The notes beneath the pieces were generated by a model, which was not told where the DNA came from, searched no databases, and was given only the letters and a program-made list of their open reading frames with translations. The position numbers were made by a program, and so were the translations under genes. 51,381 bases of DNA from a virus: the IMG/VR virus record IMGVR_UViG_3300045988_079259, positions 1-51,381 of that record. One strand, written 5' to 3'. This document shows positions 16,122 through 51,381 of this stretch, one piece after another (position 1 is the stretch's first letter; every line of letters begins with the position of its first letter).

Positions 16122-16766
16122 TTATTTTCTTTCTATAGGTACGAGATAACATCTGCAATGCCAGTGCTGCTTGTCGGGCGCTTCGTTAATAGGGAATATT
16201 TCTCCGTCAAGCGGCTTGCAAATCTCGCATACCTTTTCATCCTCTTGCGTTACCCACATCACATACTCAACTCCCGCGTCCTTGTATGCTCTGAGCGCCG
16301 TCTCGTCAGTCACTATATCGGCGTATTGGGCGGTCATATTCGACCATAGGCTTACTGCACGTCTCCACTCGCTGTTAACGTCTGAACGTGTCCTGAGAGC
16401 TTCTGAAAGCCTGTCGCGCTTTCTTAAGACTTCGTTCTCGTATTCGTACTTTGTTACGGAATTCGGAGACGAGAGGACAGTCTCAACAAGGGTCTTTTTT
16501 GTTTTTGCGGAAATTTTTCCGATGTCCTTGTAACCGTATCGGCTTACTTCTTCGCCTATTTCTTCATATATGGCAAAGGCAAGTTCTAACATCGTGTCCC
16601 GTAAATCGCTGTCAAGGTTCTTGTAAAGCGTCGCGACGGTCTTTATAACATGAAGCTCGTCGAATTTAGCAAGCCTTATTGAGTACTTAGCTTTTTCAAA
16701 CCGCCGTATTGTCTTCTTCCGCAGTATTTCTATCGCTCTGTCCGTCGTTATGTACCGTTCTTGCAT
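16122..16766 (-). CDS. head morphogenesis protein (SPP1 gp7 / Mu F-like)
   Basis: The C-terminal motif VCEICKPLDGEIF...HWHCRCYLVP is typical of the family. AAGGAG RBS before ATG 16766. Overlaps the portal 3' end. Confidence 0.75.
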   Translation of the reverse strand: MQERYITTDRAIEILRKKTIRRFEKAKYSIRLAKFDELHVIKTVATLYKNLDSDLRDTMLELAFAIYEEIGEEVSRYGYKDIGKISAKTKKTLVETVLSSPNSVTKYEYENEVLRKRDRLSEALRTRSDVNSEWRRAVSLWSNMTAQYADIVTDETALRAYKDAGVEYVMWVTQEDEKVCEICKPLDGEIFPINEAPDKQHWHCRCYLVPIERK

Positions 16767-18219
16767 TCTCAAGCTCCTTTTCTAAGCTGTTTTCAAGCTC
16801 GGACTGTGCTTCTTCATACCACTCCATACCGCGCTGATATGCGTTCTCTACATCTGTAAACAAACCAGAAATGTCGTAAGCATCGCGCGGATGAACCTTT
16901 TCGTTGTTGAGCAGTTCACAAAGAACCTGTGCTTTCGATTGAATGTCGGTGAGGTTTTCGCGGGTAAACTGAATCTTGACGTCAGTCGGGTCAAGGTCGA
17001 GAACACCCTTGTCTTTGTAAATTTTGAGAATCAGCTTCAGAATCTCTCTTTCTGAACGCGCAAATAGCTTTTCAGTGTCGTTTGCTCTCGCGGAAGCGTC
17101 CTGCCACCCGTTGCGGAATCTCGTTCCCATGCCCGTGTCTGCCGCGGCTGAATCTCCGGCTCTTGTCGGCATACCCGTTATTTCATCAATGTAGTCATAC
17201 AGCGCGTCTATTTCCGTCTGAACGCCCGTCTGAGAGATTTCGGAGGATATGCGGTAAACCTTTGCTTCCGTTCCCTGACCGCTTCTGATGCAGATACACT
17301 GACCGCCCCTTGCAAGCTCCTTGTATGTGTTCTCGTCGATTTCGCAGTTTTGGAACACGTCATAGGCGTTCACAAAGTCAACAACATTGTCAACACGAGC
17401 GGATTCAAGAGTGTTTATCATGTTGATAGGCGAGAGAACCGTCTCAAACGCTCCTAAACGAGCTTCATTCAGCGGATATTCCACTATCGGAACGCGCCCG
17501 AAGTCGTAAGCAAGCCAGTCCGCAATATCGTTACCCTTTACGGTGTATCTTCCTTCCGGCACATAAACGTAGTAAATGAGGTTATCGTCCTCGTCGTACT
17601 GTTTCAGTACACCCGCGAGAGGTTTTCTGCCAATGCCCGAAGAGTAGATAACAAACGCTTCTCTCGGGTCAAGGGAATAAAGAGCTGCGGGACTGCCGTC
17701 TTTCTCGTTGTCGGGGTCGGGAAGAACCATCCTCGGTTCAACTCCGCAGATGTGCATCCAGTCGGAGCACTCTTTGTCCTTTGATTCTTTTCCCTCGGAA
17801 GTCATAAGAACGTTCAGATAAGCTACCTTGTCGGATATATCCTCTTTTCCGTTCGCCGCTACATACTGAATGGGAGAACTGAGGAAGAACGAGGATTTAA
17901 AAGTAACTATCTTGTTCGGAAGGTTGATAGTGACCTTGTTGTTGTTGTCGGGTCTTACGGTTTTGTCTTTATAGCGGATATCCATTATTCCGCGATAAAC
18001 GTCATATAAGTAATTTATTTCCGCGACATTTGCGCTGTCGAAACCGAGCGAATCTTCAAGCACGGACACAACGTTGTCGGCGGTTATTCTTTGTTTATTC
18101 GTTAGTATCTTTCGCCGACCATGAAGGCTATCACAAGTAGTAAGGCGAACAATATCATTTTCAAGCACGTGAAAAACCTCCGTGTAAACAAAAATAGGGA
18201 CTACCCGTATGTTTTCCAT
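16696..18219 (-). CDS. portal protein (SPP1 gp6-like)
   Basis: 507-aa ORF downstream of the terminase; size and synteny fit. The exact start is uncertain. Confidence 0.8.
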   Translation of the reverse strand: MENIRVVPIFVYTEVFHVLENDIVRLTTCDSLHGRRKILTNKQRITADNVVSVLEDSLGFDSANVAEINYLYDVYRGIMDIRYKDKTVRPDNNNKVTINLPNKIVTFKSSFFLSSPIQYVAANGKEDISDKVAYLNVLMTSEGKESKDKECSDWMHICGVEPRMVLPDPDNEKDGSPAALYSLDPREAFVIYSSGIGRKPLAGVLKQYDEDDNLIYYVYVPEGRYTVKGNDIADWLAYDFGRVPIVEYPLNEARLGAFETVLSPINMINTLESARVDNVVDFVNAYDVFQNCEIDENTYKELARGGQCICIRSGQGTEAKVYRISSEISQTGVQTEIDALYDYIDEITGMPTRAGDSAAADTGMGTRFRNGWQDASARANDTEKLFARSEREILKLILKIYKDKGVLDLDPTDVKIQFTRENLTDIQSKAQVLCELLNNEKVHPRDAYDISGLFTDVENAYQRGMEWYEEAQSELENSLEKELENARTVHNDGQSDRNTAEEDNTAV

Positions 18220-18257
18220 ACGAATAGCCCCTATCGGCTCTTACTGCAACCCGATTG

Positions 18258-18440
18258 TTACAGCGTTTTTATAGTGTATTTAGCTTTTCTCGAAGCGGTT
18301 ATTTCAAGTATAGTGACCTCTTCGCGCGATTTCTTTATTTTAACGTCATTACCACGCTCTAAAATCTCGTTGATTATAAGAAGCGCATCTTCTTTGACGT
18401 ACTTGAGACGGTGCGCGTGTTTCTCTTCTTCCATAGCCAC
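18258..18440 (-). CDS. hypothetical small protein
   Basis: 60-aa ORF between terL and the portal gene. GAGGTG lies just upstream; the start may be ATG 18434. Confidence 0.45.
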   Translation of the reverse strand: MAMEEEKHAHRLKYVKEDALLIINEILERGNDVKIKKSREEVTILEITASRKAKYTIKTL

Positions 18441-22918: not shown

Positions 22919-23008
22919 TCCCTATGCAGAGTGGCGGGAGCAATCCCGTTAATGCGGTCTGGCAGACGGTCACAAACCCCGACAGCTGAAAAGAAAGGAA
23001 CAAAATAA

Positions 23009-23360: not shown

Positions 23361-23657
23361 ATGAAAAAACAGTATTATGTTTGGTACGGCAATTTCGGGA
23401 ACGTTTACAATCTCTACTGGGCGGAGACCCCCGAACAAATCAAGCTCGCCGAAGAAAACGGCTACACCCGCATCACCCGCCGTCAGGCGGAGAAGCTGTG
23501 CGCCGAGGAAAACAACCGCCGTAAGTTTGACGGCAATTTCTCCTGCTACGCCGACAACCTCATCTTCCCCGTCGATTGCGACGAATGCGAGCGCGACCTG
23601 CTGAACAACCGTAGCCTCTATGTTGATGGCTACATCGTAAACCGCAAAGTCGGCTGA
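23361..23657 (+). CDS. hypothetical protein
   Basis: 98-aa ORF with an AAAGGAG RBS. Confidence 0.6.
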   Translation: MKKQYYVWYGNFGNVYNLYWAETPEQIKLAEENGYTRITRRQAEKLCAEENNRRKFDGNFSCYADNLIFPVDCDECERDLLNNRSLYVDGYIVNRKVG

Positions 23658-23787
23658 GCGACTATAAACAGGGTTCAAGCTCGGTGCGTTCCCTCTTCGG
23701 AGGGAGGTATCAAAATTTAAAAAAATCCCTTACGCATCTATACTTTCTTGTGTAATATGCTCATAGGGAATTATTAGGAGGATTATC

Positions 23788-27603: not shown

Positions 27604-28068
27604 ATGAAAGTACTGAAAATTTTCCTCGTGTTTCTGCTTGTAATGGTTCTCATGGGCGCGTGTACGTTTTGGCTCAGAGCGAAATGGAATAGGGAATATG
27701 AGCAGGACGAACTCTATAAACGTAGTAGCGAGCTTTACGAAAAATCGAAAGAGAATTTAGCAAAAGAAGAGAGCGCAAGACAAGCGTTAGACCAAATCGG
27801 CAAAGACCTTGAAAGCAAACTTGACCAAATCGACCACGATATGTTTGTGCTTAAATATCTCATCGACGAAGCGTACACTTACAGCGAAAAGCCGGACAAA
27901 ACAGAAGCCGACAAGCTCATCTTAAACGCATTGGTCGAAGAAATAAACGACATGAGCGCAAAGCTGAGTGGAAGCTCGAAAGTAAAACTGAAAATCACCA
28001 TCACGGTTAACGGCAGTATAGCAGAACCCCGCGAAGAAATAGACAAAGAACTCGAAGAATTAGAGTAA
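27604..28068 (+). CDS. membrane/lipoprotein paralogous to a segment of the tape measure protein (candidate superinfection-exclusion factor)
   Basis: 154 aa. N-terminal signal/TM with LMGAC. YEQDELYKRSSELYEKSKENLAKE matches [27 protein letters not shown] (16/24 by hand). Further blocks also match: MFVLKYLIDEAY / [12 protein letters not shown] and LVEEINDMS / LISEINGMG. Confidence 0.75.
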   Translation: MKVLKIFLVFLLVMVLMGACTFWLRAKWNREYEQDELYKRSSELYEKSKENLAKEESARQALDQIGKDLESKLDQIDHDMFVLKYLIDEAYTYSEKPDKTEADKLILNALVEEINDMSAKLSGSSKVKLKITITVNGSIAEPREEIDKELEELE

Positions 28069-28082
28069 AACCAATCAATCCA

Positions 28083-28117
28083 AAAAGAGCAAGGAATTAC
28101 TTCCCTGCTCTTTTTTA
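28083..28117. terminator. bidirectional rho-independent terminator
   Basis: aaagagcaaggaa-ttac-ttccctgctcttttttatt. Nearly identical to the terminator at 43300..43340. Confidence 0.75.
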
Positions 28118-28534
28118 TTTGCTTTGTTCTTTTGGTTCGCCGCCGCCTGCTTGTTTTCGCCATTTCGCGACGTTCAAAGCGAATTTCTCTATCACTTTCC
28201 AGTCTTCCGGCTCAAGCTCGGCAAGTGCCATCACAAATTGCTTCACAAAAGATTCATCGGATTCATTCACTAATTTTCCGAACGCATCTATCAATGCATC
28301 TTCTGTGTCTTTCGGGCGGAACATATCTCCCTTGCCCGTTCTAAGCCAATTTTCGGCAACACCGTATGTATTGCATATATCGGAGATAACTCTATCAGTG
28401 ACACCTATTCTGCCTATCTCTATATTGCCTAAGTTCGAACGCGATATGTTAATTCCCGCCGCGAACTCTTCCTGTGTTATCTTGCAGGCTTTTCTGACAG
28501 CGCGGATTCTTTCACTGATTTTATCTTCGCTCAT
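28115..28534 (-). CDS. XRE-family HTH repressor (cI-like)
   Basis: 139 aa. The HTH region is IRAVRKACKITQEEFAAGINISRSNLGNIEIGR. Divergent from the early promoter. Confidence 0.8.
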   Translation of the reverse strand: MSEDKISERIRAVRKACKITQEEFAAGINISRSNLGNIEIGRIGVTDRVISDICNTYGVAENWLRTGKGDMFRPKDTEDALIDAFGKLVNESDESFVKQFVMALAELEPEDWKVIEKFALNVAKWRKQAGGGEPKEQSK

Positions 28535-43579: not shown

Positions 43580-43696
43580 TTACTTGAGAAGTTTTTTATT
43601 TTTCTCGAGAAGTTTCGCGAAGCGCAAAAGAAGGATTATGCCTTTGTCGTTTAGTTTGCTTACGATATTTGCTAACTCAAATCTGCAATGCTTCAT
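43580..43696 (-). CDS. hypothetical small helical protein (38 aa), paralog-like of 43333..43497
   Basis: MKHCRFELANIVSKLNDKGIILLLRFAKLLEKNKKLLK. Has the same AAAGAAGGGA RBS context. Confidence 0.4.
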   Translation of the reverse strand: MKHCRFELANIVSKLNDKGIILLLRFAKLLEKNKKLLK

Positions 43697-43879
43697 CTGT
43701 CTGTCCCTTCTTTGTTGGAAATATTTTCTAATTCAAGTGTAACATGCTATTCGAGAGAAGGCAATAGCCGAGTTTAATATTCCATATTAAAATCAGATAC
43801 AAAAATATACTGGTTTTACATTCGACAAATTTATGCACTTATCGGCGCACATTCAATGTTGACAAACATTTAACAACGT

Positions 43880-43913
43880 AAAAGAGCACCCCCATCCAGA
43901 AGAGTGCTCTTTT
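43880..43913. terminator. bidirectional rho-independent terminator
   Basis: aaaagagcac-ccccatccagaaga-gtgctctttt (10-bp stem, U-runs in both directions). Confidence 0.7.
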
Positions 43914-44270
43914 ACACAGCAAATTCATAAACAAAGGAGGAACATGACAGAAGTCACGAAAGGAAACGGAGGGAGTTGAACCCTCGCAAGCAGTCTGTTG
44001 ACCGCCAAACGACCGATTCGCCGTTCCCATGTGTGACAGCTTTAAAAGCCGCCACGGGTTGAAACAACACGACCGAAAGGACGAACGACCATGTTTGCCG
44101 CGCTTTGCGGAGTTGAACCGCAGTTGTACACATTACGGTATCGTCTGCCGTTGAACGTATAGCGCGATATCCGAGCAGCCCGTTGGCGGTTCATCACTCC
44201 CGCTTTTTGCTCGGATATTTTAAAAGAAAGGAGTTTCAATACGAAGAACAACCAGAATTCATTGTCCTAT
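43914..44270 (-). ncRNA. candidate structured noncoding RNA with two tRNA-like modules (unclassified)
   Basis: Bounded by a perfect consensus promoter (44277..44305) and the 43880 terminator, with no ORF carrying an RBS. It contains an 11-bp helix ATATCCGAGCA/TGCTCGGATAT and two T-arm-like hairpins sharing GGTTCAACTCC (GAGGG-TTCAACT-CCCTC and TGCGG-TTCAACT-CCGCA). The first T-arm carries a fully paired 7-bp acceptor-like stem, the second a 6-of-7-paired one. Confidence 0.55.
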
Positions 44271-44276
44271 GACAAC

Positions 44277-44305
44277 ATTATAGCACGTTTAAACGCATTT
44301 GTCAA
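44277..44305 (-). promoter_or_regulatory. consensus sigma-A promoter (TTGACA-17-TATAAT) driving the candidate ncRNA
   Basis: Minus strand: TTGACAAATGCGTTTAAACGTGCTATAAT. Confidence 0.8.
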
Positions 44306-44344
44306 CATATTTATCAACGTTTAGTAATATATTGTTTGTCACGT

Positions 44345-44962
44345 TTAATGTTTACTAAATAGCTTTGCAAACCAATTTAACTTACGCTTGTTACCTTGTT
44401 CAACATCGGATTCGTTTGTTGACTCAACGTTATTCTCGTCTGCAACAGTTTTTTTGCCGGCTGAGACGTTCTGTGAGCCGTTCTGTGGCGCATTAACAAA
44501 CTTATCCGATTCACTGACCGCATGGAGCGTTTGTGCCTGCACAGCGGTTTGTAGCGCGTTGTGGGCGAGTTCAGCGAACTTGCTGGCGTAGTCTGCAATC
44601 TGCTTATCACGTTCGTCAAGCATTTCCGTCTTCTGTTTCAGCTCGTCTGCCTGTCTGTCAATTACGTTTCTGAGAGCTTCTACAGTCTCCTGTAGGCTCT
44701 TTATTGTTTCTGCGCTCAAACACTCGTGTCCTTCGTTTTCTTCGCTCTCACAAGCCTGTGGTGCGTCACACGCGGTTTCCGCAACTGCTTCTTGTTTTTT
44801 TGAGTTGCTATATAGTTTCAATGCATCCTCGGAGATTCTTTTTACTCCGTCCTCGCTTGTCACTATATATTCTTCAAGACCGTTCCGCTTAATTCTTTGA
44901 TATACCGATTGACTTGTCACTCCGGCTCTGTCGGCGAATTCGGCTATTGTGAGGTATTTCAT
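44345..44962 (-). CDS. replication-associated HTH/coiled-coil protein downstream of rep
   Basis: 205 aa. MerR/excisionase-like N-terminal HTH (LTIAEFADRAGVTSQSVYQRIKRNGL), a coiled-coil, and a basic hydrophobic C-terminus (KRKLNWFAKLFSKH). ATGA-coupled to rep. Confidence 0.6.
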   Translation of the reverse strand: MKYLTIAEFADRAGVTSQSVYQRIKRNGLEEYIVTSEDGVKRISEDALKLYSNSKKQEAVAETACDAPQACESEENEGHECLSAETIKSLQETVEALRNVIDRQADELKQKTEMLDERDKQIADYASKFAELAHNALQTAVQAQTLHAVSESDKFVNAPQNGSQNVSAGKKTVADENNVESTNESDVEQGNKRKLNWFAKLFSKH

Positions 44963-45651
44963 GGATTGCTCCTTGCTTTTGTGATTGAGAATTTAATATG
45001 AGTTATACTTCTTCCCGTCCGCGTCGGCTCATAGGCTACACGCAAATCACTAACGGCGTTAATTTCGTCAACGGCAGTGTCGATTACGCGCTTGCGAAAA
45101 TCAATAAAATCCGAATAACCGCCTATTTGCATAAGCGTTTTCAAATTTTCAACAGAAACGGTGTACTCGCCTATATTGGCATAGCTTTTAAGTATCTCGT
45201 ACAAACGTATAGTGTGTTTCGATTCCATGTTTAACACGGTTTGAAGCTGATATGCCGTATACGATTCTTTGAGTTCGAGCAAATAAGGCGCTAACCGCTT
45301 GTCAAGCTGAATCCTAACCCGCGATTCATTTTCGTATATTTCCGCGCCCGAAATCCATGCGCATAGCTTTCTTACATTTCCGTCCACTATCCAGAATGAC
45401 TTGTCGCGTATGGATTGCAGCGTTTCACGGAGATTCTTGTAATTCTTGCCGTTTTGAGTAATTCCAAGTGCTTCACACATATCTTGCAGATTGAAATCAT
45501 ACTCATAAAGTTCTTTATCATCTGGTTTTACCTTGCTTATCGTATACAATATGACTTTTTGCTCCTGTGTTGTCATTCCGTATCTTGACTTTTGAATTAG
45601 TTCGTTCTTTTTGACAACCAAATTATTAATTTTTTTATCGCTATTTTCCAT
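44959..45651 (-). CDS. Rep_3-type (RepB-like) theta-replication initiator
   Basis: 230 aa from ATG 45651 (AAGGGAG RBS). The pattern LVVKKNELIQKSRYGMTTQEQKVILYTISKV...ESKHTIRLYEILKSY, with the iteron array directly upstream, is typical of iteron plasmid initiators. Confidence 0.75.
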   Translation of the reverse strand: MENSDKKINNLVVKKNELIQKSRYGMTTQEQKVILYTISKVKPDDKELYEYDFNLQDMCEALGITQNGKNYKNLRETLQSIRDKSFWIVDGNVRKLCAWISGAEIYENESRVRIQLDKRLAPYLLELKESYTAYQLQTVLNMESKHTIRLYEILKSYANIGEYTVSVENLKTLMQIGGYSDFIDFRKRVIDTAVDEINAVSDLRVAYEPTRTGRSITHIKFSITKARSNP

Positions 45652-45752
45652 GGTTACTCCCTTCATGTTGAAATCTCTGTGCAAAACTATGTTGAAAACA
45701 TTGTTGATAACTGCAAAAGAACAATTTTCCCGTGTGTTTTCTCGGTTTTACA

Positions 45753-45885
45753 GTTACCAAATGTCCTGTTTATCGTTACCAAATGTCCTGTTTATCGTTA
45801 CCAAGTGTCCTGTTTTACAGTTACCAAATGTCCTGCTATCCGTTACCAAATGTCCTGTTTATCGTTACCAAGTGTCCTGTTTAAC
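45753..45885. repeat. six direct 22-bp iterons (GTTACCAAATGTCCTGTTTATC), followed by an AT-rich tract: plasmid-type origin
   Basis: Units start at 45753, 45775, 45797, 45820, 45842 and 45864. The AT-rich stretch 45886..45960 is adjacent. Confidence 0.9.
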
Positions 45886-46229
45886 ATTTCCCTACTTTAA
45901 TTATATAAAAATAGTAAAATAATAAGTATCTCTTATAAAAGTAATAAGTATGTTGTTTCACGAACTAAAGCGCATAAATTTTGCCTGTTGAAAACTCAAA
46001 AGCGAATACACGGTTAGTAAGCAGAAAGAGAAAATTTTTACCATATTGTAATTTTAAGCTATCTGCCATGCCTTGTCAAGACGTTATCTAAATATTGACA
46101 AACGTCTAAATCAACATTTTTCAACGCATTGGTAAACAGATTTACAAACATATTGACAGGGAAGTGTATTTTAGGCAATTGCCGAAAATGATTTGATGAA
46201 CAATGAAGTCAATCGCGTTCCGCAACCAA

Positions 46230-50656: not shown

Positions 50657-51381
50657 TTAAAATGCAATGATGTTGTTGACCGCACGGCTGCCGCCCGTTG
50701 ACCGTCTCTTGATTCCCTCAACACGGATGTACGAGCCGCCGCCGTCAAGAGCAATAACATTCTCAAAACCTTCACCCTGTATCTTTCGCCAAACCTCGCC
50801 GGACTTGATGTAGTTTGCCGAGGTAGTTTTGAGAGTGAGTACCCATATCTCGCCGCCCCTGATGCCGAGCATGTTTCTCGATGTGCCGTAAGTGGTCGAG
50901 CCGTCCCAGCCCTCCGCGCTCACGTAGCTCATGTCGACAGGTTTTTTGTCGGTCACAACCGGCACACCGCTGATAGCGTACTTGATTCCCGACGGGATTT
51001 TGTCAACGCGCTCGATTGTCGGCTTGCCGGAGTACGGCACGAGCAGGGTAGATACCTTTTTGCCCGCAAACTGCTTTGTCGCATTGTCGGCGATACTGTA
51101 CACAAGGTGGTTTCCGTAGACGTGTTCAAAGAGATTTCCCTTTGCCGCCGCCGGAATGTCCTTGATATCGCAGGCAAGGTTAGCGACAGGGAGCGTGTAC
51201 ACCTCGCCGTCCTCCGAGCGGTAATTTGCGAAGAAGCCGCCGTTGATGTATCTCTTAACACCGCCCTTGCGCTTGTCCGCGTCATGATAGATTATCGCAA
51301 AGTCTTTGGCGCGGGTGTATGTGATGCCGTCCTTGTCGTAGCTGTCTTTGTACACTGTCGGTTTTTTCGGCGCGGATTTGA
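50657..51381 (-). CDS. endolysin, C-terminal part: phosphodiester-glycosidase (NAGPA)-like domain (continues from 1..549 across the junction)
   Basis: No stop between 51355 and the window end. Through the 119-bp overlap it is in frame with the M23 part. YINGGFFANYRSEDG...ALDGGGSYIRVEG is typical of the NAGPA-like family. The whole gene is 1155 nt (384 aa). Confidence 0.7.
   Translation of the reverse strand, partial: KSAPKKPTVYKDSYDKDGITYTRAKDFAIIYHDADKRKGGVKRYINGGFFANYRSEDGEVYTLPVANLACDIKDIPAAAKGNLFEHVYGNHLVYSIADNATKQFAGKKVSTLLVPYSGKPTIERVDKIPSGIKYAISGVPVVTDKKPVDMSYVSAEGWDGSTTYGTSRNMLGIRGGEIWVLTLKTTSANYIKSGEVWRKIQGEGFENVIALDGGGSYIRVEGIKRRSTGGSRAVNNIIAF
51263..51381. repeat. second copy of the 119-bp terminal direct repeat
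   Basis: Identical to 1..119. Confidence 0.95.

Follow-up and report, generated by a model that had tools for sequence, protein, structure and literature searches.

The c4 (immI) RNA of phages P1 and P7 and the CI RNA of P4 are small phage RNAs that direct short seeds against a nearby ribosome-binding region, and P1 c4 and P4 CI are known as RNase P-processed antisense immunity RNAs. Units that resemble tRNAs but do not decode also occur within noncoding transcripts, as in the tRNA-microRNA-encoded RNAs (TMERs) of murine gammaherpesvirus 68, MALAT1 and its mascRNA, and the t-elements of plant mitochondria, where they recruit RNase P or RNase Z and set the ends of neighboring RNAs. Here, we describe a locus that recalls both kinds of system in IMG/VR virus record IMGVR_UViG_3300045988_079259, whose positions 1 to 51,381 were analyzed as one stretch of 51,381 nucleotides (nt), termed the window. 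On the minus strand of positions 43880 to 44305, between a promoter and a terminator, lies a gene for an RNA of approximately 390 nt that combines two predicted tRNA-like modules with three CU-rich motifs.

The likeness to c4 and CI is one of logic. The window RNA, too, has short seeds complementary to the ribosome-binding region of nearby genes (gene X and a 38-amino-acid [aa] open reading frame [ORF], both described below), a correspondence that suggests functional resemblance and not family membership. The longer precursor that RNase P recognizes in the c4/CI system is predicted for the window RNA by analogy only. Those RNAs belong to temperate elements kept as plasmids, as the window phage probably is, and the gene order c4-icd-ant is resembled here by the RNA gene, then the 38-aa ORF, and then a 54-aa ORF. 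There is, however, no sequence or covariance-model similarity to c4: the C4 antisense RNA model gave no match at E values up to 10 in positions 43600 to 44600 and none at the gathering score in the window. In addition, the window RNA has three seeds, and its two full cloverleaf-like modules both possess T and D loops, whereas c4 is one RNA of approximately 77 nt, and it has its own promoter and terminator and a host that is likely a Clostridia-type gut bacterium. The P1 c4 analogy raised in the initial annotation of this DNA is, thus, supported by inter-module stretches antisense to phage ribosome-binding sites but not by any match to the c4 model.

Other described RNAs are more distant. TMERs, viral tRNA-like units fused to precursor-microRNA hairpins, share with mascRNA and the t-elements the presence of nondecoding tRNA-like units in a noncoding transcript, but these systems are eukaryotic or organellar, have no evolutionary relation to the window RNA, and release microRNAs, the 3' end of a long noncoding RNA, or mRNA ends, not anti-Shine-Dalgarno seeds. 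The tRNA-like domain of transfer-messenger RNA (tmRNA) has the same G3:U70 pair in a 7-bp acceptor and an anticodon arm replaced by a helix of variable length; the window RNA differs in having no tag reading frame or pseudoknots, acceptor strands 68 nt apart instead of approximately 350 nt, a discriminator U, no encoded CCA, and a different D-loop analogue. Canonical phage tRNAs share the acceptor stem, the T arm with a UUCAAnU loop, the D-loop GG, and the length of 68 to 69 nt, whereas the anticodon-like loops of the window RNA measure 6, 8, or 4 nt and contain no conserved anticodon, and its modules score below every detection threshold. YrlA, a bacterial Y RNA, is likewise a noncoding RNA with a tRNA-like module and T loop, but the window RNA has two modules plus CU-rich seeds and no match to a Rfam Y RNA, and no Ro/Rsr (TROVE) gene was found among the window proteins searched. 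Each component is known by itself, tRNA-like processing signals as well as the antisense control of ribosome-binding sites; their combination in one phage RNA, with two modules and three seeds, has to our knowledge not been described. The family is absent from Rfam, and its helices, outside the invariant stems of module 2, vary enough for their pairing to be assessed. A large IMG/VR survey of candidate structured RNAs mentions tRNA-like candidates generally (PMC10690425), and parts of this locus may be among them.

The gene is delimited by two signals, both of which had been proposed in the initial annotation and both of which are present. Its sigma-70 promoter, TTGACA-17-TGcTATAAT (44277..44305, minus strand), agrees with the consensus at 12 of 12 positions and includes an extended -10 TG; transcription is predicted to start near 44271 (minus strand) and to yield a primary RNA of approximately 390 nt ending at 43880. 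The intrinsic terminator (AAAAGAGCACUC...GGGUGCUCUUUU, 43880..43913, minus strand) is a 14-bp hairpin between an A run and a U run and is bidirectional in shape; since its U run belongs to the stem, a simple scan for terminators overlooked it. The RNA, taken as 391 nt, has a folding energy of -134 kcal/mol (z = -3.3 versus shuffles). The predicted order along the transcript is a 5' hairpin, CU-rich motif A, helix P2, tRNA-like module 1, CU-rich motif B, hairpin H2, tRNA-like module 2, a further hairpin, CU-rich motif C, and the terminator.

To assemble homologs, we drew on pattern scans of IMG/VR, a pattern scan of metagenomes, and contigs encoding relatives of the adjacent helix-turn-helix (HTH) protein, and we collected 23 distinct versions (given L numbers below) from IMG/VR and metagenome contigs of gut phages of approximately 50 kb. 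Members of the main subfamily, the window included, are 80 to 100% identical, and the divergent types (L047, L049/L052, and L051) are alignable only in the two modules, short motifs, and overall layout. All 23 versions keep the promoter (as TTGACA...TATAAT or TATACT), the terminator (with compensatory changes, GAGCGUUC/GACGCUC, in L007), and the architecture, and the surrounding gene order does not vary: rep, the HTH gene, the RNA, small ORFs, and a convergent gene for a single-stranded DNA-binding protein. Beyond these contigs, distant-mode blastn found nothing similar in GenBank phages or PLSDB plasmids, and a genome scan with the 5' block of the RNA returned no match. Separately, we noticed that the 8-nt terminator loop is exactly inverted between L049 (4990-5016, TGGTTGAT) and L052 (1450-1478, ATCAACCA), near-identical relatives whose terminator stems are identical.

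No ORF on either strand is common to all versions. A 1-nt insertion (C) in the module 1 acceptor is matched by an A>G change on the pairing strand. Because there are 23 conserved versions with covarying helices and no conserved ORF, this is almost certainly a genuine structured noncoding RNA gene. The earlier proposal of a noncoding RNA locus bounded by promoter and terminator is thereby upheld, and the comparison of homologs for covariation that had been suggested with it shows base pairing, and not an ORF, to be what is conserved across the 23 versions.

Both modules contain a stack of 7 acceptor and 5 T-stem base pairs, a UUCAAnU T loop, and a D loop with GG, and each is preceded by a hairpin and a linker of approximately 4 nt that ends in AU. 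Module 1 (69 nt, 44098..44166, minus strand) has the acceptor CGCGCU(A)/(A)AGCGCG, a discriminator G, the D arm CGUU-CAACGGCA-GACG, an arm at the anticodon position with a 4-bp stem and a variable 8-nt loop, and the T arm UGCGG-UUCAACU-CCGCA, in which the fifth stem pair is variable. Across versions, 88% of its cells are paired and four pairs have changed on both sides (slid controls gave 21 to 57%). An alternative fold with a long arm fits equally well, and the inner fold may be either of the two.

Module 2 (68 nt, 43961..44028, minus strand) is built from the acceptor GGGAACG/CGUUUCC, the D arm GCGA-AUCGG-UCGU, whose stem follows the acceptor directly without a linker, a variable arm, and the T arm GAGGG-UUCAACU-CCCUC; its discriminator U is followed by UUU, and no CCA is encoded. 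Here, 97.5% of cells are paired, the variable arm covaries (three pairs), and the acceptor and T stem, including G3:U70, are invariant in all 23 versions. At the anticodon position stands a 6-bp arm with a 6-nt loop (CAACAG or CAAAAG), which in L047 and L049 is a hairpin of 9 to 10 bp with a 4-nt loop. The acceptor-like pairings that had been noted beside the T arms hold in both modules, CGCGCUA/AAGCGCG pairing at six of seven positions and GGGAACG/CGUUUCC at all seven, with G3:U70 as its one G.U pair. Covariance models built from module 2 (R1) and module 1 (R2) score 92.9 and 93.7 bits, respectively, on the minus strand and 6.1 and 8.2 bits on the reverse, which confirms the minus strand as the RNA strand. 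We consider the tRNA-like folds very probably real on the strength of these alignments, and retention of the D-loop GG and the T loop makes an intact elbow probable.

The T-arm sequence GGTTCAACTCC does lie, as first noticed, in a hairpin of each module (44119-44109 and 43982-43972, minus strand), and it has a third copy at 17735-17745 (plus strand); three matches in the window compare with 0.05 expected, and none of 100 shuffles reached three. Models R1 and R2 find no further module copies in the window, only a 13- to 15-nt T-arm fragment at 17734. That fragment is a 15-nt exact copy of the module 1 T arm (CGGTTCAACTCCGCA, 17734-17748, plus strand; 0.037 expected) and lies antisense inside the minus-strand ORF at 16696-18219; 16 nt past it is a 10-nt copy of the terminator stem (GAGCACTCTT, 17765-17774, plus strand), with no surrounding tRNA-like fold.

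The modules had been described at the outset as tRNA-like yet noncanonical, and dedicated searches bear this out. Each has the 7-bp acceptor on a 5-bp T stem, the UUCRANN T loop, and the D-loop GG of a tRNA, but neither combines a 5-bp anticodon stem with a 7-nt loop and a conserved anticodon. ARAGORN, run for tRNA and tmRNA, called zero genes in the window and none in eight homolog loci. Against the Rfam tRNA model RF00005 (threshold, 29 bits), module 2 scored 19.6 and 18.8 bits, and module 1 was not among the matches at E values up to 10. No tmRNA family matched at E values up to 10, and only a short hairpin lies between the acceptor strands. None of the 4227 models of Rfam 15 reached its gathering score in 43880-44305, and E-value mode returned only subthreshold, chance-level matches in this region. 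A real tRNA or tmRNA is, therefore, ruled out by ARAGORN, Rfam, and the variable "anticodon" arms, and a known RNA family is ruled out by the lack of a Rfam match; the clean hit that could have removed the novelty of the locus did not appear.

Outside the modules, the transcript has three segments (leader, spacer, and tail), each with one hairpin and one CU-rich motif that is predicted to be unpaired or displayed in a loop. (i) The leader begins with the 5' hairpin (AGGACAAU/GUUGUUCU, 44245..44268, minus strand), predicted in every main-subfamily version, whose 5' strand varies (GGAACAAU or GGAGCGAC) and still pairs with the invariant 3' strand. It is followed by motif A (ACUCCUUUCUUUU, 44222..44234, minus strand), predicted to be single stranded and anti-Shine-Dalgarno-like, as part of 50 nt that hardly vary within the main subfamily. 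Helix P2 (44167..44218, minus strand), the 11-bp stem announced for this transcript and found as such, pairs ATATCCGAGCA (44218-44208) with TGCTCGGATAT (44177-44167) around a variable internal hairpin, leaving approximately 4 nt (AUAU) to the start of module 1. Every subfamily has a helix ahead of module 1, although its sequence is unrelated elsewhere (CUCGGUA/UGCCGAG in L049; GCGGUAAC/GUUGCCGC in L047).

(ii) The spacer between the modules (44029..44097, minus strand) holds motif B (UCCUUUCGG, 44081-44073, minus strand), displayed in a predicted hairpin loop, then hairpin H2 (44055-44033), with eight pairs of which three are compensatory, and the linker ACAU; UUCCUUUCG is the only spacer sequence common to all subfamilies. 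(iii) The 3' tail (43932..43958, minus strand) is a hairpin, CGUGAC-UUCU-GUCAUG (43958-43943), followed by motif C (UUCCUCCUUUG, 43942-43932, minus strand), which is predicted to be single stranded. The tail hairpin covaries (GUGAC/GUCAU, GUGGU/GCCAU, and GCAGC/GCUGC), and together with the terminator it amounts to 15 pairs, three of them compensatory. The CCUCC of the tail is kept despite a change in tail length and reads CCACC in L051; more generally, the CU-rich motifs persist when the flanking sequence or its length changes. They resemble the 3' end of Firmicutes 16S rRNA, and each is preceded in the window by an anti-start triplet (CAU or CGU), at a distance of 3 nt in the tail, 7 nt in the leader, and 10 nt in the spacer, such that the leader, with CGU 7 nt upstream of its anti-Shine-Dalgarno sequence, has an anti-start-codon geometry.

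Candidate targets were assessed by duplex energies on candidate ribosome-binding sites. In L047, spacer nucleotides 180 to 203 are antisense to 23 of 24 nt spanning the Shine-Dalgarno sequence, AUG, and codons 2 and 3 of gene X, a 161-aa gene with its own consensus promoter located 3 kb upstream of the RNA (L047:1822-2307); the match has an E value of 1e-5 within the locus, and the duplex is predicted at -29.1 kcal/mol. A second genome, rebuilt from contigs L197 and L051, which overlap and come from the same sample, keeps the duplex (-27.4 kcal/mol). Gene X forms only two protein clusters in a database of 5.8 billion sequences, both from genomes with this spacer type. IMG/VR holds no additional genomes with gene X, and the link between seed and target is one of co-occurrence, not of compensatory change.

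For the tail, the candidate target is the ribosome-binding site (AACAAAGAAGGGACAGACAGAUG, 43694..43725, minus strand) of the 38-aa ORF (43696-43580), which lies 180 nt downstream; among the 227 such candidate sites of the whole genome, it ranks first (-26.7 kcal/mol; z = -3.1). In loci sharing both elements, blastn-short finds 19 of 22 positions of antisense identity between tail and site, and the shorter, L054-type tail pairs better with its own site than with that of the window (-20.2 versus -15.3 kcal/mol). An earlier scan had placed first the duplex between the tail and the rep leader (UUUUGCACAG/CUGUGUAAAA plus the Shine-Dalgarno sequence), which is ruled out because L047 has the same tail and a different rep leader, from which the sequence involved is missing, and because that sequence is a DnaA-box-like repeat.

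The best complements to the leader within the window genome are leads only: the ribosome-binding site of the gene starting at 27604 (24 of 30 positions; E = 1.8), a 154-aa ORF (27604-28068, plus strand) with weak spanin- or lipoprotein-like PHROG matches, and that of the adjoining cI-like HTH_3 repressor gene recognized by Pfam and PHROG searches (28115-28534, minus strand; 10 plus 5 bp at its start, 28534). The notion that the leader is a dedicated regulator of the cI-like repressor is weakened by the presence of this allele and site in only four RNA-bearing IMG/VR contigs, and the pairing with the 27604 site is weakened likewise, as not all genomes that share this leader have that site. Overall, the CU-rich motifs on balance probably act antisense on ribosome-binding sites, and judging from the sequences compared, it appears that genomes exchange seeds along with the genes targeted. 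As a further observation, L049 (5019-5474), L051 (1920-2366), and L052 (1480-1935) have a cI-like gene, different from that of the window, that lies right next to the RNA and is convergent on its terminator; within the ribosome-binding site of this gene is ACGAAAGGAA, to which the spacer motif is perfectly complementary.

The reading we prefer, to which we assign roughly even chances, is that of a trans-acting, multiseed antisense regulatory RNA with a c4-like logic that uses tRNA-like modules as handles. A temperate phage with a plasmid-type replicon would strongly transcribe a precursor of approximately 390 nt, whose three CU-rich segments would serve as seeds that pair with the Shine-Dalgarno and start-codon regions of phage mRNAs and so control or block their translation. 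The modules would act as punctuation, with RNase P and RNase Z cuts at their 5' and 3' sides freeing three seed-bearing small RNAs; alternatively or additionally, they may provide stable end structures. The modules keep the 12-bp acceptor/T-arm stack, the T loop, and the D-loop GG but no longer have an anticodon arm fit for decoding. Recognition by RNase P and RNase Z depends on the elbow and the acceptor/T-arm stack and does not involve the anticodon, and in Firmicutes, tRNA precursors without CCA are processed with RNase Z. We infer such processing because the conserved features are the ones read by RNase P, RNase Z, and the CCA-adding enzyme; by analogy to these tRNA determinants only, we regard the punctuation step as possible rather than probable.

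Were this reading true, the locus would be a bacterial-virus counterpart of the tRNA-punctuated noncoding transcripts of herpesviruses, mitochondria, and MALAT1, and a natural multiseed antisense RNA that silences ribosome-binding sites, in a compact design where tRNA-like handles flank programmable seeds. It would also extend RNA-based control of immunity or maintenance, represented in Enterobacteria by P1, P7, P4, and N15, to uncultured phages of gut Clostridia with plasmid-type replicons.

Several observations weigh against an antisense role with the modules as processing signals. In the window genome, no target reaches genome-wide significance, and CU-rich sequences pair with any Shine-Dalgarno sequence, such that short matches are weak evidence. 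The strong match in L047 could be left over from a small inverted duplication instead of being a working seed, the L007 tail pairs poorly with the 38-aa ORF site of its own genome (-14.9 kcal/mol), and the candidate sites of the leader are present in only some of the genomes that carry the same invariant leader. The module 2 acceptor and T arm are 100% invariant even where the neighboring protein is only 53% identical, and this points to an extra, sequence-specific partner, because processing would need shape alone. There is also a variant, L041 (12364-12661 of metagenome contig ULRP01078938.1), in which a deletion of approximately 90 nt has taken out the larger part of module 1, including its T arm, together with the first half of the spacer. 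Its leader, spacer hairpin, module 2, and tail are intact, and the deletion may be a viable variant or an assembly artifact.

The likeliest alternative is that the RNA functions as a single unprocessed molecule of approximately 390 nt, the modules being rigid scaffolds or exonuclease blocks that display the three seeds without any cleavage by RNase P or RNase Z. The helices abut the modules, with a leader of approximately 4 nt before position +1, a setting that may disfavor RNase P; in several versions, the tail hairpin directly follows the discriminator; and the overall fold is stable (the z score of -3.3 given above). We nevertheless think this unlikely, in that the features kept are those of processing-enzyme substrates (the 12-bp stack, the elbow, a U at position -1, and a U-rich trailer after module 2) and a plain hairpin would suffice as a scaffold, which leaves the tRNA shape unexplained.

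Alternatively, the modules may themselves be the functional products, as tRNA or tmRNA mimics or as decoys, with the CU-rich parts secondary. As a mimic, module 2 could be recognized through G3:U70 by alanyl-tRNA synthetase, EF-Tu, or SmpB; as a decoy, either module could soak up a host defense nuclease or toxin that targets tRNAs. G3:U70 is the main identity element for alanine, and its invariance along with that of the module 2 acceptor and T arm, the retained D-loop GG and T loop with a probably intact elbow, and the identity of the 24 nt that make up the module 2 T arm and 3' acceptor strand to the 3' end of the tmRNA of an uncultured Lachnospiraceae metagenome-assembled genome (MAG) all speak for such a role. 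The acceptor of that tmRNA is GGGGACG/CGUUUCC-ACCA. The phage RNA has become fixed for the A3-to-G3 change from which the alanine/tmRNA identity pair results.

The same 24-mer, however, is also the 3' end of ordinary tRNA-Ser genes of several phyla (9 of 11 genome matches), the discriminator is U and not A, no CCA is encoded, and the segment after the 5' acceptor strand is unlike the D-loop analogue of tmRNA. Neither ARAGORN nor Rfam calls a tRNA or tmRNA here, and mimicry leaves both the CU-rich seeds and the 23-of-24-nt antisense match unexplained; we judge it quite unlikely. A CCA could be added to module 2 after cleavage, and a bifunctional RNA, in which module 2 is matured, CCA tailed, and charged with alanine or bound by SmpB or EF-Tu, or serves as a defense decoy, all in addition to the antisense seeds, seems distinctly improbable. 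If true, it would be a new kind of RNA with which a phage taps or blunts the host machinery for translation rescue or tRNA surveillance, and the invariant G3:U70 does raise the question of whether a phage RNA engages alanyl-tRNA synthetase or the trans-translation machinery.

The position of the locus, always behind rep and the HTH gene, invites the idea of replicon control, in which module 1 would be an iteron-like site, bound by Rep as DNA or pairing with the iterons as RNA, and the RNA or its gene would tune copy number. In L047 (4796-4814) and L049 (4756-4774), the variable arm of module 1 indeed holds, in inverted orientation, the best match to the iteron matrix outside the origin (18.7 and 14.9 bits, respectively, versus 11.3 bits or less elsewhere), and ACAGUGACAAAAUGU agrees with the reverse-complemented iteron at 14 of 15 positions, which none of 500 shuffles equaled. 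This is a post hoc observation among many comparisons, though, and module 1 has no matrix match in the 11 main-subfamily loci scanned, the window among them (alignment test, P = 0.66 for the window and 0.02 for L054). An iteron mimic, hence, holds for the L047/L049 subfamily only and not for that of the window, and we consider replicon control very improbable as an account of the RNA.

That the locus is a phage attachment site (attP) or the captured end of a tRNA or tmRNA gene, with no RNA function, is suggested by the identity of the module 2 3' half to tRNA-Ser and tmRNA 3' ends, a pattern typical for attP cores. No integrase turned up among 35 ORFs searched with Pfam and PHROG, a set without the minus-strand structural-module ORFs at 1-22,000; the genome is a circular 51,262-bp assembly with a Rep3 replicon; and the locus has its own consensus promoter and terminator, with conserved and covarying 5' acceptor strands, D arms, and variable arms. 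In genomes scanned with the module 2 3' half, the RNA locus itself occurs solely on a phage-like MAG contig of 36.9 kb, and the other matches are unrelated tRNA-Ser and tmRNA genes. On these grounds, the attP reading is largely refuted and extremely unlikely.

We give next to no credence to a small ORF being the real gene: the 63-aa (43839-44030, minus strand) and 69-aa (44042-44251, minus strand) ORFs pointed out in the initial annotation exist but are not conserved in homologs, and protein coding is ruled out, as the ORFs differ in every version, 1-nt insertions and deletions are tolerated, and substitutions track base pairing, not codons. An 11-codon ORF (MTEVTKGNGGS*) on the opposite strand of the tail (43932-43960, plus strand) opens with the ATG of AAGGAGG-N3-ATG; its Shine-Dalgarno sequence is present in the window, L007, and L054, with better spacing in the latter two, but its start codon is absent from L049, L051, and L052, and it probably merely mirrors the anti-ribosome-binding-site design of the tail.

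The window ends are identical over 119 bp (1-119 and 51263-51381), and for this reason, we treat it as a complete circular or circularly permuted assembly with a 51,262-bp unit; related metagenome contigs span 49 to 54 kb. The genome is that of a tailed phage and combines a minus-strand structural module with a module for recombination and replication. Its plasmid-type replicon consists of a Rep3 initiator gene, rep (44959-45684), with three 12-bp DnaA-box-like repeats (TTTTCAACA/TTATCAACA, 45665-45712) and six 22-bp iterons (GGACAYTTGGTAAC..., 45723-45900) just upstream, repeats that by their sequence make up a theta-type plasmid origin within the phage genome. The RNA gene does lie in this plasmid replication and maintenance region, as had been reported, but not immediately downstream of rep: between rep and the RNA promoter is a 205-aa HTH gene (44345-44962, minus strand), in a position that presumably parallels that of the orfX genes after repB in lactococcal theta plasmids. 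The sole domain match of its product is a weak N-terminal HTH_17/excisionase-like one, and none of its 43 database relatives is annotated. The closest plasmid relatives of Rep are from rumen and Butyrivibrio plasmids, that of the terminase is in a Clostridium innocuum phage, and the 36.9-kb contig with a copy of the RNA was binned with an uncultured Eubacteriales MAG; because of these affinities and the plasmid-type replicon, the virus is likely a temperate phage-plasmid of gut Clostridia.

Around the RNA promoter are TAAACGT repeats (44277-44360, minus strand), one of them between the -35 and -10 boxes, and in L049-type relatives, these promoter repeats read GTTTAAAC; as possible operators, they might be bound by the 205-aa HTH protein encoded next to them. 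Elsewhere in the window, three known RNA families score above their Rfam gathering thresholds: a gut-2 RNA (18220-18267, minus strand; 48.9 bits), a type-P5 twister ribozyme (22925-22982, plus strand; 40.8 bits), and a Pistol ribozyme (23648-23712, plus strand; 62.8 bits).

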